From: Escherichia phage vB_EcoM_HZ_ZJUN4
Sequence record: PP216085
Length of the DNA: 64,000 nucleotides
Strand: one strand, 5' to 3'
This document shows positions 1-5,681 of this stretch, piece after piece; the stretch's first letter is position 1, and each line of letters starts with the position of its first letter. A program made the position numbers and the translations under genes. Below the pieces are notes generated by a model that was given only the letters and a program-made list of their open reading frames with translations, was not told the DNA's origin and searched no databases.

Positions 1-56
1 TGATATGTTGTTTATGTGTAGTAGTTGCATACGGTTATTACGCAATTAATGATTAT

Positions 57-374
57 ATGCATTATAAAGATTATGATGTTACTGTAGTTAATACCATTAC
101 AGGAACACAAGGAAAAGGGTCTAGTTTATCGTTTATTGCCGTATATGAACTCAAAGACGGTTATAGATTTAGTGAATATATTTCCCCAGAGATGTATTCT
201 TCAATAGAAAAGGGTGATAATATTACTGTAAGTTTACGTCCTTTCGACGTAAAACAGACACTGTTTGATAATATTGTTTGGTTCTTTGGGATGGTATTAG
301 TTCAATCCGTGTGTGGCGCTTATGTAGTCTGTTCAATCATATTCTGTGTATTTAGTAAAATTGAAATTGAGTGA
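57..374 (+). CDS. hypothetical protein
   Basis: Track ORF; hydrophobic C-terminus; no clear RBS; overlaps next gene. Confidence 0.25.
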   Translation: MHYKDYDVTVVNTITGTQGKGSSLSFIAVYELKDGYRFSEYISPEMYSSIEKGDNITVSLRPFDVKQTLFDNIVWFFGMVLVQSVCGAYVVCSIIFCVFSKIEIE

Positions 375-381
375 GGAAAAT

Positions 382-1272
382 ATGTCAGTAGTAATTAATA
401 ATGTCAATGCAGTAATTAAATCATTAGTTAATAAAAAAATGATGAATGAATGGACTGTACTTCGCCGTGGAGAGCCAGATAAATTTTTTCATAGATTTAA
501 CCCAACTTTGGATTTGAATGTTATCGACAAAGATGTTCATGCAGAAATTTTAGATAAGTTTAAAGTTGATATTGGATTTGGATTAGAAAAACATTTGCAG
601 CGAACAACCGGGTCTGGAATGAGTTTATCTAATCGCATTATGAAAGCCCTTAATAAAATTGGAGCGTTGTCTCGTATTAATGCGAGCGAAATCCTTCGTA
701 ATTATAATAAAGGATATGACCTTTACGGTCGACTAATGCCAAAATTATCATTCGATCAAATGATTGCGGATTTGTGGGAAAATCAACGACGATTATTAGC
801 ATTAGGCGCTCGATTAGCTAAAGGTCTAGATAAACAAATGATTTTTAAGACCAATAATACAGAAGACCTTAAATGCTTTAAATTTAGTATTCGCGGAGAT
901 GATTATTACATCAGAGCTCGCTCTACAGATTATGTTAATATGGGACATCATCTCTGTTTAGCTTTTGAAGTTTTAAAAGAAGCTGGAACACTAGAATATT
1001 CATCTGGTGCTAAATGCCCTATTGGTTCAAGTTGTATTTTAATTTATCGCCCGGATGAATCCAGTTCAACTAAATTGCCTACGAAACCTGTGCCAGTTCG
1101 TAGTAACGAAAAACATTCTGAACAAATTGATTATTTTAATAAGCAGATTGAAGAGCTGAATATTTCTATTCAACAATATGACGATGAAATTTTCAGACTA
1201 TCTGGATTGAGTAGTAAAGCTAAATCTGAGCGTGAAAAGTTAATTAAAATTGTTGATTTACTTAAATCTTAA
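382..1272 (+). CDS. hypothetical protein, tandem paralog 1 (K/E-rich coiled-coil-like C-terminal tail)
   Basis: Track ORF 346..1272 trimmed to ATG (MSVVINN) preceded by GAGGAAAAT RBS; motif RRLLALGARLAKG resembles motifs in next three ORFs. Confidence 0.6.
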   Translation: MSVVINNVNAVIKSLVNKKMMNEWTVLRRGEPDKFFHRFNPTLDLNVIDKDVHAEILDKFKVDIGFGLEKHLQRTTGSGMSLSNRIMKALNKIGALSRINASEILRNYNKGYDLYGRLMPKLSFDQMIADLWENQRRLLALGARLAKGLDKQMIFKTNNTEDLKCFKFSIRGDDYYIRARSTDYVNMGHHLCLAFEVLKEAGTLEYSSGAKCPIGSSCILIYRPDESSSTKLPTKPVPVRSNEKHSEQIDYFNKQIEELNISIQQYDDEIFRLSGLSSKAKSEREKLIKIVDLLKS

Positions 1273-1280
1273 GGAACACT

Positions 1281-2309
1281 ATGAAAACTCGTTCTCAAAT
1301 TGAAGATATGGTTCGTAATGCTAGCTATACTCGTGATGTTATGACATTTTTGTGTGAAAATAATTTAGACCCTGATAAAGTTAATCGTGTTATTCATCAC
1401 TTTAAGTATACGAATAGCAGTGAATGGGTGCGTAATTTTAGTAAAGCGGGGTATATTACACAAATGACGGCTCGTGAGCAGCTCACCGATTTCTGTAAAA
1501 CTATTGATTATAAAAATCCTCTATTTGTTCAAGGCGTTGGTCAAAGTAAGGTCGATTTATCATCTGGATTTTTCAATCCAAATCATTATCGTATTGAATG
1601 GAGATTTATTGCTCTGTTCCGTAGACAATTAAAGCAAATTTTATCAACTGCGAGTCGATTAAAAGGTTCTGATATTAACTTAAAGAATCTGAAATTTGAT
1701 GGTTATACTCTTCAGATGGAAGTAAGACCATTAAAAGAAAATAATAGAACTGCACGAATTAGCTTTAAACCTAATACAAAAAATTCTCTTTCAATTTGCG
1801 AATGCCTTAAATTGCAGTTGACAGAAGCATTTAAGTATATGGATGTTGTTGCCGCTGTTCAGTCTAAGATTTTACCTCGTTTTGAGCGAAATTGGGAACA
1901 TACAACAACGTATGAACTTGATATGATCGTTTCATTTAAATACGATTTTTTGAGAAAGGACGAAGTCCCGCAAGAGAAAAAGCAGGAAGTACAAGATAAC
2001 TTAAATTTAAATTTATCCAATTACTCATCAAACGATCCTAAATTTTGGATGTATAGTTCAGGTAATAAAGATGCATGGAAATTCAATAAAGTGAATTTTC
2101 TTCCTGTTGAAAATCCGAGTCTTAAACCTGTTGAAAAATGGCACGCGGATGCGATTGAGAAGTCTATCAAGGCAGTAGATGATGAACTCGTTAAAGCAAC
2201 TAATGAAGTGCTAGAAGCTGAAAAGATGCTAGAAAAAGCTCAAGAAAAAGTCAAAAATCTCACGAAGCAACGTTCTAAACTGAACAATGCACTAAATGCA
2301 CTAAACTAG
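1281..2309 (+). CDS. hypothetical protein, tandem paralog 2 (coiled-coil-like C-terminus)
   Basis: ATG preceded by AAGGA; N-term MKTRSQIEDM; motif RRQLKQILSTASRLKGSD; tail LEAEKMLEKAQEKVKNLTKQRSKLNNALNALN. Confidence 0.65.
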   Translation: MKTRSQIEDMVRNASYTRDVMTFLCENNLDPDKVNRVIHHFKYTNSSEWVRNFSKAGYITQMTAREQLTDFCKTIDYKNPLFVQGVGQSKVDLSSGFFNPNHYRIEWRFIALFRRQLKQILSTASRLKGSDINLKNLKFDGYTLQMEVRPLKENNRTARISFKPNTKNSLSICECLKLQLTEAFKYMDVVAAVQSKILPRFERNWEHTTTYELDMIVSFKYDFLRKDEVPQEKKQEVQDNLNLNLSNYSSNDPKFWMYSSGNKDAWKFNKVNFLPVENPSLKPVEKWHADAIEKSIKAVDDELVKATNEVLEAEKMLEKAQEKVKNLTKQRSKLNNALNALN

Positions 2310-2338
2310 TTTACTTTGCCACAAGGATGTGGTATAAT
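2310..2338 (+). promoter_or_regulatory. T4-type early promoter
   Basis: GTTTAC -35-like element then TGGTATAAT extended -10 with about 17 nt spacing, upstream of CDS 2367. Confidence 0.6.
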
Positions 2339-2366
2339 GTTCTTACTTTCTACTGAGGAGATTAAT

Positions 2367-3368
2367 ATGACTCGTAACGAATATATCAAATCATTCAATA
2401 GTGTTATTGATGATAAAGCTATACCGGTGTTTGGCCAAAATAGCGTTATTTCTATTATCAATCAATGGCTCAATAGCGTTGACGCGAGTATTGTTTCTTC
2501 TGCTAAATTTATTCATGAAATTCGTAAAATTTCTAGCCGTGTAGATAAAGATGTTATCAAGAAAACCTTTAAAGAGTCTCGTCTTCTTTCATATTTGGTT
2601 AATCGGGATATTCTTGGTAATTTTGGGAAAGAAATTAAACGAACCAAAGATGTAGTAGGATATAATTGGTTCGGTGATGTTAATTCTTATCATCTTAATG
2701 TCAAAGAAGACCCTGAGAATATTTTTACTCGTCGTTGGATTAGTAATTTCAGACTTTTCAAAGGACAGATTCTAAAATCAGCTTCTAAATTATGTTATGG
2801 CGATTATCGTCAAATTCATCCTTTGGCTTCTGATATGATTATCATAAAAGAATATGAACTTGATAAAAATAAAGTATCTATTTTTGTGAATTATGGATTT
2901 TTTACACCAGAAACTAACCAAAAGAATATTAATAAATTTTTCTCAATTGCTAGCACTATAACTCGTCAATTAGAAACCGCATTACTTTGTATGGAAACGG
3001 TAGAAAATATTCATACTTATCCTTTTAAGAATATGTGTGGTTGGGAAGGATATAAAATTATAATTAGCCTTCGTGAAGTGAAATGCGCTTATTCACCGAC
3101 TGATAAAGAAATTTACCAACAAAAATGTGATGAAATTGTGAATACTCCTAAAGAAGAAACTACCCTTGAAGAACTAATGGATAATCTTGACGATTCGCCT
3201 GAACCGATAGAAATTCGTCCAGAAGTTATTGCACTAGAAAAAGCTTATAAAGAAGTTCTAGAAATTTCTAATAAAGCGCAGAAAGAATATGAGAAGGCTA
3301 AAAGGATTTGGGAAGAATCTGTTAATCGCCTGGATCGTCTTGAACAAGCTTTACAGCTAATTAAGTAA
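2367..3368 (+). CDS. hypothetical protein, tandem paralog 3 (coiled-coil-like C-terminus)
   Basis: Track ORF 2316..3368 trimmed to ATG (MTRNEYIKS) preceded by GAGGAG RBS; motif FKGQILKSASKLCYGD; K/E-rich tail. Confidence 0.65.
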   Translation: MTRNEYIKSFNSVIDDKAIPVFGQNSVISIINQWLNSVDASIVSSAKFIHEIRKISSRVDKDVIKKTFKESRLLSYLVNRDILGNFGKEIKRTKDVVGYNWFGDVNSYHLNVKEDPENIFTRRWISNFRLFKGQILKSASKLCYGDYRQIHPLASDMIIIKEYELDKNKVSIFVNYGFFTPETNQKNINKFFSIASTITRQLETALLCMETVENIHTYPFKNMCGWEGYKIIISLREVKCAYSPTDKEIYQQKCDEIVNTPKEETTLEELMDNLDDSPEPIEIRPEVIALEKAYKEVLEISNKAQKEYEKAKRIWEESVNRLDRLEQALQLIK

Positions 3369-3420
3369 TTTAAAGCCAAGGATGGCTCGGAGTATAAATC
3401 ATTAACCAAGTGAGAAGAAC

Positions 3421-4350
3421 ATGAAAACTCGTAAACATTATATTGATTATTTTGACAGTCTTATTACTAAACATCGTAATTATCAGATAGGACATAGAGC
3501 AGTAATCAATAATATTCTTCGTGATTTCCTTCAATATGTTGGCCAGGAAAATCATATCTGTAAAGATACACAGAACGCTTATTCTCATTCGTTGGGCAAT
3601 TTGCTTCAATGGTTTAAACGTTCTCGTATGTTATCTTCTACTGTAGCTCGTGATAACATTAAAAACTTTATGAAGCCGAGCTTTATTAAATCTGAGACAT
3701 CTATAACTGATTTGGTTGAATTTACTATTGTTAACGATGTTAAAAAGACCCATTTGGCTGATTGGTTATCTACCATTCCTGAAACTAAATTTGCTGATAA
3801 ATTCGCTTGTCAATTCAATGACCAAGTGAATATGCTTTTTAAGCATGCTCGTAAACTATTTACCGCAGGCGATGACCGTACAAATACAGTTCATGTTAAG
3901 GACTGGGTTATTGCTGATGAAGTAACGCACAAGCCAGGTGGTTCATCAGTATTAATTAATATCCAGGTTCCTTATTATTACTCACGTAATCTCGGCACCA
4001 TGACAGCTAGAGAAATTAATAAGCATAACAAAACTATTCGTTCGTTGTCTTATAAACTCTGCACGATGGTGGAGATGATGGACGTAGTGGAAATGTATGA
4101 TGAAACCGAAGATAATAGTTCAATGTTATACAGTTCACGCATTTTAATTAAACTGAAGAATCCTAATACATATAAGCCAGTTGTAAAAGAACCTAAAGTA
4201 GAAAAGGTTGATAACTTGAGCGAAGAACGTGAATACCTCAAATCTCGACTAGTTGAAGTTGAAGCCCAGATTGCCGAACACACCAAATTGTTAAAAGCTC
4301 TTAATGCAAAAGCAAATGGTTTACGCAATGCTATTGAGGTATTGAAATGA
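3421..4350 (+). CDS. hypothetical protein, tandem paralog 4 (coiled-coil-like C-terminus)
   Basis: N-term MKTRKHYIDYF similar to paralog 2; motif MLFKHARKLFTAGDD; tail [33 protein letters not shown]. Confidence 0.65.
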   Translation: MKTRKHYIDYFDSLITKHRNYQIGHRAVINNILRDFLQYVGQENHICKDTQNAYSHSLGNLLQWFKRSRMLSSTVARDNIKNFMKPSFIKSETSITDLVEFTIVNDVKKTHLADWLSTIPETKFADKFACQFNDQVNMLFKHARKLFTAGDDRTNTVHVKDWVIADEVTHKPGGSSVLINIQVPYYYSRNLGTMTAREINKHNKTIRSLSYKLCTMVEMMDVVEMYDETEDNSSMLYSSRILIKLKNPNTYKPVVKEPKVEKVDNLSEEREYLKSRLVEVEAQIAEHTKLLKALNAKANGLRNAIEVLK

Positions 4351-4664
4351 AAAAGCGTCTATTAGAAGATATTGCAGCTTCAAGTAATTCCAGTCTAATT
4401 AAAATTATTATGGCTGGTGAAGAAGACGATCTGGAAATGCGCGGAAAGATTCATGGTTGTGACGATCTAGACTTTAAACCTCCTGCTTGGGATGCCATTA
4501 TGGCTATGGTTGAACGTCGCGAAAGGGCTTCTAAGAGTGTTCCGAACTGCCCAAAATGTGGTACCGAACAGGTACAATTAGTTCATTGGCAGACTAGTAT
4601 TCTTCGTTATAAATGTCGTCATTGCAAACACCGATTTAACCGAGAAGAAAATGACAAAGCGTAA
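4347..4664 (+). CDS. small zinc-ribbon protein
   Basis: C-terminal CPKCG...CRHCKH (CxxC-x17-CxxC); start overlaps previous stop (ATGA). Confidence 0.5.
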
Positions 4665-4893
4665 AGAATATATGGAGATTGCTGAAAAAGCAGTCCGTGA
4701 ATTAGCAATAGCTTATTATAATGAACATGGTAAATTTCCTGATAGATACAGCGTGCTTAAATCTGCTTTAACTCGTTCATATAAAAATATGCTATCAGAA
4801 GTAAGTGATATTATATACAAACATAAAGAACAAACTGGCCAAAGTCTTGATTATGACGAGACTTTTAAACAAGTACTAGGAATTAAGGAATAA
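4651..4893 (+). CDS. hypothetical protein
   Basis: Track ORF, 80 aa, tightly packed between neighbours. Confidence 0.45.
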
Positions 4894-4894
4894 T

Positions 4895-5158
4895 ATGTTT
4901 AAAGTATATGGTTATGATAGCAACATCCATAAATGTGTGTATTGTGATAATGCAAAACGTCTCTTGACTGTGAAGAAACAGCCGTTTGAATTTATCAACA
5001 TTATGCCGGAAAAAGGTGTTTTTGATGATGAGAAAATCGCTGAGCTTCTGACTAAACTAGGTCGTGATACTCAAATCGGATTGACGATGCCTCAGGTATT
5101 TGCTCCTGATGGAAGTCATATTGGTGGATTTGACCAATTGCGGGAATACTTTAAATGA
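4895..5158 (+). CDS. nrdC: phage thioredoxin/glutaredoxin NrdC
   Basis: 87 aa with CVYC redox motif near N-terminus; matches recalled T4 NrdC. Confidence 0.85.
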   Translation: MFKVYGYDSNIHKCVYCDNAKRLLTVKKQPFEFINIMPEKGVFDDEKIAELLTKLGRDTQIGLTMPQVFAPDGSHIGGFDQLREYFK

Positions 5159-5370
5159 TGCTTGAAGGAACTGATTATATCCATGACTACCGCGGAAGCG
5201 CGGTATATGTGGGTGATGAGGTTGCAGTTTATTATGGGTATGGAACTTTGATGACAGCAAAGGTTATTCAAATTAAAAATGGCCGTGCTAAACTCGAAGT
5301 TTATTATTCTAATGGTGAAAAGTCTATTTCTAAATGGAAATATGGCGATTGCATGGTTAAACTGGGGTAA
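5155..5370 (+). CDS. hypothetical protein
   Basis: Track ORF, 71 aa; ATGA overlap with nrdC stop. Confidence 0.4.
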   Translation: MMLEGTDYIHDYRGSAVYVGDEVAVYYGYGTLMTAKVIQIKNGRAKLEVYYSNGEKSISKWKYGDCMVKLG

Positions 5371-5372
5371 AT

Positions 5373-5681
5373 ATGATTTACGATGTTGATGCAGTTTTGA
5401 GCGAAATCATCGAAGACCATGATGCATTTTCTGAAAATTATGATTTCGATTTTTCGGATTATCTTAAACCTATCGAAATAGAAGACTGGGTACAAGATGG
5501 CAAATGCCAATATCGGCAGTGTGTTTATTTTAGCCCAAAACATAATGTACATGTTTCCGTAAATGAATGCCGTTCAGGTTCTTATCATTCTGACTGGTAT
5601 TATGCAGTTCCAACTGTTGAGTTAGTTGAACTACGAGAACGTGTAGTAACTCAGACAATACGAGAATGGATTACGCTATAA
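5373..5681 (+). CDS. hypothetical protein
   Basis: Track ORF, 102 aa. Confidence 0.45.
   Translation: MIYDVDAVLSEIIEDHDAFSENYDFDFSDYLKPIEIEDWVQDGKCQYRQCVYFSPKHNVHVSVNECRSGSYHSDWYYAVPTVELVELRERVVTQTIREWITL

Follow-up and report, generated by a model that had tools for sequence, protein, structure and literature searches.

The closest described counterpart of the locus considered here is NrdC.5 of phage T4 (domain of unknown function DUF7235). A T4 clone with a deletion covering nrdC.5 could not infect ECOR17 or K-12 carrying the ECOR17 dsr1 gene, and expression of nrdC.5 alone restored infection by this clone on Dsr1-bearing cells (Srikant, Guegler and Laub, eLife 2022, PMC9391042). In Dsr1 a SIR2 NADase is joined to a tetratricopeptide repeat sensor, which reportedly recognises major capsid proteins (PMC12803255). 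A 64,000-nucleotide stretch of Escherichia phage vB_EcoM_HZ_ZJUN4 (PP216085; hereafter the window, to which all positions refer unless another locus is named) carries four consecutive + strand genes at positions 382 to 4,350, encoding proteins of 296, 342, 333 and 309 amino acids (aa), for which a preliminary description made from the sequence alone had given exact coordinates and lengths. The second gene is the orthologue of T4 nrdC.5, in the same length class and at the same position, and the array as a whole (nrdC.6, nrdC.5, nrdC.4 and nrdC.3) is very probably a set of diverged tandem paralogs of one family, with nrdC.6 the most distant. The other three genes would be distant paralogs of nrdC.5 with the same plan of head, linker and tail. 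NrdC.5 differs from them as the sole member with a demonstrated target, and it was not presented as part of a paralog family (PMC9391042).

The T4 internal proteins IPI, IPII and IPIII, together with Bas37_0260, are likewise a T-even accessory set in which one short common module is joined to variable bodies and different members counter different defences (IPI neutralises GmrSD, Bas37_0260 neutralises McrBC), the same logic as is proposed for the array. In the internal proteins, however, the module is N-terminal and targets them to the capsid, and they are injected along with the DNA. The products of nrdC.3 to nrdC.6 instead have in common a helical core and a coiled-coil tail at the C-terminus, lack a capsid-targeting motif and are made from early transcripts; the two sets showed no sequence similarity. 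DSAD1, the anti-DSR2 protein of SPbeta, reportedly binds directly to a defence NADase of the SIR2 family and so blocks it (PMC10973363, PMC11087589). Functionally it parallels the mechanism proposed for NrdC.5, where direct binding is itself a proposal. Its target is DSR2 rather than Dsr1, it comes from a different phage group, and it was absent from the matches of the sequence and fold searches made for nrdC.3 to nrdC.6. Finally, as in the anti-defence islands of T4-like phages (dmd-tifA-adfA; the gp49.2/nrdC.1/nrdC.8 neighbourhood), the array lies in a run of small, early, non-essential genes, several of which encode proven inhibitors (of OLD, Septu and Druantia III). Those neighbours are unrelated single genes, whereas the array consists of four paralogs.

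Paralogy of the four genes

Positions 1–5200 of the window share 96–97% nucleotide identity, over the full length, with many Tequatrovirus genomes, including KIT06, W143, SA20RB and ime09, which assigns the source to Tequatrovirus, as a T4-like coliphage. Synteny with the annotations of ime09, T4 and SA20RB backs the identification of the four open reading frames (ORFs), each preceded by a Shine-Dalgarno-like sequence, as the orthologues of T4 nrdC.6, nrdC.5, nrdC.4 and nrdC.3, in that order (Table 1). Curated resources (Pfam and PHROGs) recognise three families here, not one: nrdC.4 and nrdC.3 are placed together (full-length matches to the PHROG 1435 hidden Markov model, HMM; E = 2e-167 and 6e-116, respectively), with nrdC.5 (PF23882 HMM; 431.8 bits against a cut-off of 30, E = 2e-129, profile positions 1–307 of 307) and nrdC.6 (PHROG 2257; E = 3e-152, residues 1–296) apart.

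Pairwise comparison of all four proteins by BLASTP linked nrdC.4 to nrdC.3 (25% identity over 271 aa, E = 5.6e-8), and none of the remaining five pairs was significant (all E > 0.1). A first round of hhalign, based on shallow family alignments, again joined nrdC.4 to nrdC.3 (98%, E = 1e-13 to 1e-14), gave 39% for nrdC.5 and nrdC.4 (E = 3e-4, 177 colinear columns) and left the links of nrdC.6 at 5% or below. The weak alignments of this round were mutually consistent, with the same two segments superposed in all of them.

These low first-round values were overcome by adding single-copy homologues that bridge the array. The HMM of nrdC.4 and nrdC.3, searched against 1.84e9 (1.84 billion) representative proteins, returned just 10 matches, in which P0233, P0226 and P0227 were the only new proteins; nrdC.5 and nrdC.6 were not reached. 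P0233, a 315-aa protein of Klebsiella Marfaviruses (E = 1e-3), and its single-copy relatives (IME523 gp085, Kosakonia 305, PEi20 and PM2 gp092) constitute the bridge family, the genes of which are syntenic, lying between the nrdC.11 nucleotidyltransferase gene and nrdC (tblastn and annotation). A profile of the bridge family aligned at full length to nrdC.6 (95.5%, E = 1.5e-8), nrdC.5 (96.4%, E = 1e-9) and nrdC.4 (95.0%, E = 4e-8), as did nrdC.5 to nrdC.4 with enriched profiles (93.5%, E = 2e-7) and nrdC.4 to nrdC.3 (98.3%). When the tails were removed, values of 85.7% (bridge–nrdC.6), 95.2% (bridge–nrdC.4), 85.7% (nrdC.5–nrdC.4; E = 5.5e-6 over 170 colinear columns) and 98.4% (nrdC.4–nrdC.3) were obtained. 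The link between the bridge family and nrdC.5 fell to 19%, and tail-only profiles of the two gave 96.6%; this link is therefore carried mainly by the tails, and the head of nrdC.5 is connected to the array through the head of nrdC.4. Controls consisting of reversed profiles, in which composition and helical periodicity are kept, and of an unrelated neighbouring 260-aa family never exceeded 0.4% (P ≥ 0.16). Two further links came from BLASTP against a small database, between IME523 gp085 and NrdC.6 of VR7 (192 aa, E = 7e-7) and between F48 gp057 and NrdC.4 (286 aa, E = 7e-5).

The tandem paralogy put forward in the preliminary description is thus borne out by the profile–profile comparisons with their controls and by structural matches of the nrdC.6 model to the bridge homologues (see below). 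The all-against-all check that it had proposed favoured nrdC.4 and nrdC.3 alone in BLASTP and all four genes once profiles were compared.

Two further sets of proteins were considered for membership. Single-sequence hhalign was underpowered for Merlin91 and for gp94 and gp111 of fHe-Yen9-01, which are probable relatives by architecture and Foldseek only. A family of 256–263 aa (MLTEII..ENRKAH...; IME523 gp088 and relatives) was rejected as a fifth member (hhalign ≤1.7%). Its genes immediately precede the single-copy homologue in Kanagawa-, Marfa-, Mosuguk-, Moon- and Tegunavirus (Table 1); between nrdC.7 and nrdC the window has none of them.

Shared motifs and modular architecture

All members possess a variable globular head of ~230–270 aa with two conserved helical motifs. 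Motif A (h-K-x-S/G-x-h-h-S/T...L-x-N-F-G) was superposed by hhalign in segments such as MKALNKIGALSRINASEILRNYNKG, VRNFSKAGYITQMTAREQLTDFCK, KKTFKESRLLSYLVNRDILGNFGK and LQWFKRSRMLSSTVARDNIKNFMK, and motif B (F...h-L-x-x-A/G-S/A-R/K-L-x-x-G-D) corresponds to the central basic motif of the preliminary description, the four versions of which (RRLLALGARLAKG, RRQLKQILSTASRLKG, FKGQILKSASKLCYGD and MLFKHARKLFTAGDD) were co-aligned in three independent hhalign runs and by MAFFT, so that this motif is real. The helical core formed by the two motifs is followed by a small beta/alpha/beta subdomain, a flexible proline-containing linker and a C-terminal amphipathic heptad helix of ~45–60 aa, typically ending in ...QRxKLxxAhxxLK. 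Tail ends are alike across the family (for example, TKQRSKLNNALNALN, RAQRAKLLHAMQELRK and TTQRGKLLRAIQALK), and in a MAFFT alignment of 20 representatives motif A, motif B, the beta/alpha/beta region, the proline linker and the tail all line up. The K/E-rich heptad tails noted earlier are present in all four proteins, where C-terminal windows of 28 residues are 75–100% hydrophobic at positions a and d. A shared N-terminus had also been claimed, and the pattern M(K)TR...Y/F-I holds for nrdC.5, nrdC.4 and nrdC.3, with nrdC.6 falling outside it.

An AlphaFold2 model of nrdC.6 (predicted local distance difference test, pLDDT, 77; predicted template modelling score 0.66) shows N-terminal helices, with those of motif A and motif B the most confident (pLDDT ~90), followed by a hairpin-helix-hairpin arrangement, a disordered linker (residues 228–242) and two C-terminal helices (243–272 and 278–295). 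Foldseek comparison of this model with BFVD recovered models of the bridge family (E = 1e-7 to 4e-4), including IME523 gp085 (E = 1e-7) and PM2 gp092 (E = 6e-7), along with uncharacterised proteins of similar size from T4-like phages of Acinetobacter, Yersinia, Citrobacter and Klebsiella. For nrdC.5, the tail helix (residues 283–341) was the only part modelled with confidence (pLDDT 66–90); the order of its elements (long motif-B helix, hairpin, helix, strand, linker, tail helix) is the same as in nrdC.6, at low confidence.

The preliminary description had recognised no catalytic motif, and the searches agree. The four proteins matched no domain of known function in Pfam, where only DUFs were found, and nothing in NCBIfam; the PDB returned no stretch above threshold by sequence and no match by fold. 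Designed helical repeats that appeared in the PDB sequence searches were dismissed as composition artefacts. The PADLOC defence HMMs gave no credible match, the best being nrdC.4 to BrxC (E = 0.005) through the coiled-coil tail only. In the alignment of 20 representatives, the residues conserved superfamily-wide were hydrophobic or structural, plus one basic position, with no conserved polar residue and no catalytic constellation. This pattern suggests binding proteins in which a variable head is combined with a common tail for oligomerisation or docking.

Distribution and divergence

The family is restricted to T4-like phages, a narrow distribution that follows from the 10 matches among all representatives searched. 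Copy number varies between genera, with four copies in Tequatrovirus, three in Mosigvirus RB69 (nrdC.6, nrdC.5 and nrdC.3), three in Gaprivervirus VR7 (nrdC.6, nrdC.5 and nrdC.4) and one each in Kanagawa-, Marfa-, Mosuguk- and Moonvirus. Between genera the family evolves much faster than its neighbours: identity to the RB69 and VR7 orthologues is 33–51% for NrdC.6, 50% for NrdC.4 and 27% for NrdC.5, compared to 84–92% for NrdC, 83–90% for gp49 and 98% for NrdD. Within Tequatrovirus, nrdC.6, nrdC.5 and nrdC.4 are 95–98% identical to T4. The rapid divergence described earlier therefore applies to all four genes between genera and, within Tequatrovirus, to nrdC.3 only.

NrdC.3 of the window is 59% identical to that of T4 and 76% to that of RB69, and the two likenesses are distributed unevenly along the protein. 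Residues 1–60 are 80–95% identical to T4 and 25–55% to RB69, residues 60–300 are 75–95% identical to RB69 and 25–65% to T4, and the last 20 residues are identical to T4. Such mosaicism implies that alleles of different genera have probably recombined. Tequatrovirus records of nrdC.3 fall into allele classes at 90–99% identity (358 records), 60–80% (156) and <60% (136).

Rearranged members of the family also occur. P0119 (299 aa; three contigs, the longest 167058 bp) is an in-frame NrdC.5/NrdC.3 chimera, in which NrdC.5 residues ~146–270 are joined at a common ‘VN’ to NrdC.3 from ‘MLFKHARK...’, and it reads as a natural deletion that removed nrdC.4 and fused two paralogs. One NrdC.6, P0121 of Shigella phage Sf25, is a length variant of 378 aa with ~80 extra residues at its N-terminus, which may derive from fusion to the nrdC.7 frame upstream.

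Pairing with nrdC.2

The start of nrdC.2 overlaps the stop of nrdC.3 (ATGA). At the window and at loci L003, L005–L009, L011 and L012, which cover seven genera (Tequatro-, Mosig-, Gapriver-, Kanagawa-, Marfa-, Mosuguk- and Moonvirus), the start of the nrdC.2 homologue coincides with the stop codon of the last family member or lies no more than a few bases away, and the two genes usually overlap. Identity of NrdC.2 across genera is 36–62%, compared to at most 25% for the family member upstream. This arrangement suggests that a family member and nrdC.2 form a translationally coupled two-gene module. Zinc-ribbon Pfam matches for nrdC.2 lay below the cut-off. Variants of the gene include that of Bas37 (L004 6927–7316), of 129 aa with a 25-aa C-terminal extension, and a gene of fHe-Yen9-01 at the equivalent place, which is without a CxxC motif.

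Proposed counter-defence role and alternative explanations

The setting of the array is one of counter-defence, in line with the preliminary description, which had called such arrays typical of host-takeover or counter-defence loci: besides the action of nrdC.5 against Dsr1, nrdC.1 counteracts Septu and bas37_0203 counteracts Druantia III (bioRxiv 10.1101/2025.11.20.689424), and gp49.2 counteracts OLD (PMC13096335). In the present analysis bas37_0203 was mapped to the nrdC.8 orthologue of phage KarlGJung. That description had assigned no function to the genes, which still holds for three of them; nrdC.5 has its published role, and the window copy, 94.7% identical to the T4 protein, would be expected to share the anti-Dsr1 activity. 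In the HIDEN-SEQ supplement, T4 nrdC.3, nrdC.4, nrdC.5 and nrdC.6 are listed as non-essential; the values for sites that tolerate insertions in the set of four are 91/94, 97/101, 82/82 and 79/82 (bioRxiv 10.1101/2025.11.20.689424).

Taken as a whole, the observations are best explained if the four genes arose by ancient tandem duplication within a single family found only in T4-like phages and act as stoichiometric immune antagonists, a reading to which we give a probability of about 0.6. The products would be early, non-essential accessory proteins, each head binding and neutralising a different host immune protein stoichiometrically and non-catalytically, and the tail would provide oligomerisation or a shared docking function. 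In this scheme nrdC.6, nrdC.4 and nrdC.3 would target other defences than Dsr1, an arms race still under way would account for the hypervariable, mosaic nature of nrdC.3, and the ancestral unit, judging from synteny in the seven genera, may have been one family member with a translationally coupled nrdC.2. A broader version is more tentative and falls short of an even chance, namely that nrdC.3 to nrdC.6 and their single-copy relatives are a T4-like-specific superfamily of modular immune antagonists, with an exchangeable, fast-evolving target-recognition head and a conserved coiled-coil tail, which might have originated as a two-gene module with NrdC.2, expanded in tandem in Tequatrovirus to four inhibitors of four host targets, and had its nrdC.3 alleles shuffled between genera as they tracked host defences.

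Several observations weigh against the immune-antagonist reading. Experimental support among the four is limited to NrdC.5, and in one HIDEN-SEQ comparison table nrdC.3, nrdC.4 and nrdC.6 are not significant (adjusted p = 1). Within Tequatrovirus, nrdC.4, nrdC.5 and nrdC.6 are as conserved as their neighbours, unlike what an intense ongoing arms race would produce. Structurally, the AlphaFold2 model of nrdC.5 was unusable (pLDDT 44, from an alignment of 39 sequences at 91% identity), so the common fold is seen directly, in predicted models, for nrdC.6 and the bridge proteins only. Direct hhalign of nrdC.6 to nrdC.5, nrdC.4 and nrdC.3 gave 9% or less, the link running through the bridge family only.

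The strongest alternative, though an unlikely one, accepts the paralogy and holds that the proteins other than NrdC.5 are host-takeover or regulatory factors acting with NrdC.2 (for example, on host nucleic acids, transcription or translation), with heads that diverged under relaxed constraint. The retention of the overlapping nrdC.2 pair in seven genera, the 95–98% identity of nrdC.4, nrdC.5 and nrdC.6 between the window phage and T4, and the lack of a defence-specific phenotype for nrdC.3, nrdC.4 and nrdC.6 in the part of a HIDEN-SEQ table that was covered would all fit such a role. It accounts less well for a member with a demonstrated anti-defence function, for an array sited among at least three other demonstrated inhibitors and for the dispensability of all four genes in laboratory hosts; accessory counter-defence genes typically show mosaic alleles and variation in copy number, and the heads contained no nucleic-acid-binding domain in the Pfam and NCBIfam scans.

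It is improbable that nrdC.4 and nrdC.3 are the only paralogs, with nrdC.5 and nrdC.6 convergent in size and helical composition and equipped with independently acquired coiled-coil tails. Coiled coils are a well-known cause of spurious similarity, and the blank BLASTP results for five pairs, the low direct values for nrdC.6 and the three separate families in Pfam and PHROGs are what convergence would predict. Yet the similarity persists in tail-less profiles (nrdC.5–nrdC.4 86%, bridge–nrdC.6 86%, bridge–nrdC.4 95%) where reversed profiles of the same composition and periodicity reach at most 0.4%; both motifs recur in transitive alignments from independent runs, the BLASTP matches of IME523 gp085 to VR7 NrdC.6 and of F48 gp057 to NrdC.4 and the Foldseek comparison back the bridging links, and the members have genome position and orientation in common.

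A redox or nucleotide-metabolism role related to thioredoxin or ribonucleotide reductase, suggested by the ‘thioredoxin’ label on all four gene families in many GenBank/UniRef records and by the proximity of nrdC, nrdD and nrdG, is refuted by the lack of any thioredoxin or glutaredoxin match in Pfam or NCBIfam even at E ≤ 1, of any CxxC in the four sequences and of any thioredoxin-fold structural match. The label seems to have spread from the positional gene names nrdC.N; it is carried by many records of nrdC.2 to nrdC.6 homologues, and one record reads ‘Mur ligase domain-containing protein’, with neither domain present.

Early promoter and gene starts

One copy had been said to have its own early promoter, and this promoter is real by consensus: the element directly ahead of nrdC.4 (GTTTAC-N17-TATAAT with TG) is the best sigma-70 consensus match in positions 1–5200 (10/12 positions and an extended -10 TG), and the near-identical phage SA20RB has a T4-type early promoter annotated at this position. 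In many database entries nrdC.4 begins with an ATG at 2337 (343 aa, MFLLSTEEIN...). This codon lies inside the -10 element (2333–2338) and is therefore excluded from transcripts of this promoter, which makes 2367, with the Shine-Dalgarno sequence GAGGAG upstream, the likelier start. The leaders of nrdC.4 (2300–2369) and nrdC.3 (3360–3423) have a common CCA(C)AAGGATG block and a similar layout, and the nrdC.3 leader contains degenerate -35 and -10 elements (ATTTAA-N19-TATAAA), which tandem duplication may have left behind as a decayed copy of the early promoter.

Genomic context

Downstream of the array the order is nrdC.2, nrdC.1, nrdC (glutaredoxin), gp49.2, 49.1, pin, gene 49 and nrdD. Coordinates are collected in Table 1.

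Table 1 Features of the nrdC.6 to nrdC.3 array, its surroundings and the rejected 256–263 aa family (positions in the window unless a locus is given)
Feature	Position	Strand	Residues or length	Remarks
nrdC.6 orthologue	382..1272	+	296 aa	phrog_2257; precomputed Pfam PF26899; 98% identical to T4 NrdC.6
nrdC.6 conserved helical core	631..834	+	aa 84–151	
nrdC.6 C-terminal helix-turn-helix tail	1108..1266	+	aa 243–295	
nrdC.5 orthologue	1281..2309	+	342 aa	Pfam DUF7235 PF23882; phrog_2351; 94.7% identical to T4 NrdC.5
nrdC.5 conserved core	1419..1673	+	aa 47–131	
nrdC.5 tail	2127..2306	+	aa 283–341	single long C-terminal helix
Early promoter, T4-type	2309..2338	+		GTTTACTTTGCCACAAGGATGTGGTATAAT; sigma-70 consensus match; predicted to drive nrdC.4, nrdC.3 and nrdC.2
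nrdC.4 orthologue	2367..3368	+	333 aa	phrog_1435; PF26897; 96% identical to T4 NrdC.4
nrdC.4 core	2553..2810	+	aa 63–148	
nrdC.4 tail	3219..3365	+	aa 285–333	
nrdC.3 orthologue	3421..4350	+	309 aa	phrog_1435; hypervariable mosaic allele
nrdC.3 core	3601..3879	+	aa 61–153	
nrdC.3 tail	4213..4347	+	aa 265–309	
nrdC.2	4347..4664	+	105 aa	zinc-ribbon protein, two CxxC; phrog_1474 match
nrdC.1	4651..4893			98.8% identical to T4; published anti-Septu inhibitor
ORF in place of absent T4 gene 49.3	5155..5370		71 aa	same ORF in ime09 and KarlGJung
gp49.2	5373..5681			97% identical to T4; published anti-OLD inhibitor
256–263 aa family	L005 4247..5017			
256–263 aa family	L006 4269..5042			
256–263 aa family	L008 3458..4243			
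256–263 aa family	L012 8256..9044	-		
256–263 aa family	L013 13845..14636	-		

Implications

The genes, the locus and the anti-defence role of nrdC.5 were known already. In the literature searched on these genes, nrdC.3 to nrdC.6 were not treated as one family, and the recognition of the four as a family together with the nrdC.2 pairing appears to be new, an incremental gain in view of what had been published. It corrects a widespread mis-annotation of nrdC.3 to nrdC.6 as ‘thioredoxin’, indicates nrdC.2 as a possible partner, and, through the common plan, points to targets for mutation, with specificity to be probed in the head and oligomerisation or docking in the tail. In T4, which serves as the reference lytic phage, NrdC.5 is known to switch off Dsr1, so that viewing the array as one family makes nrdC.3, nrdC.4 and nrdC.6 three good and ready candidates for new inhibitors of bacterial immunity.

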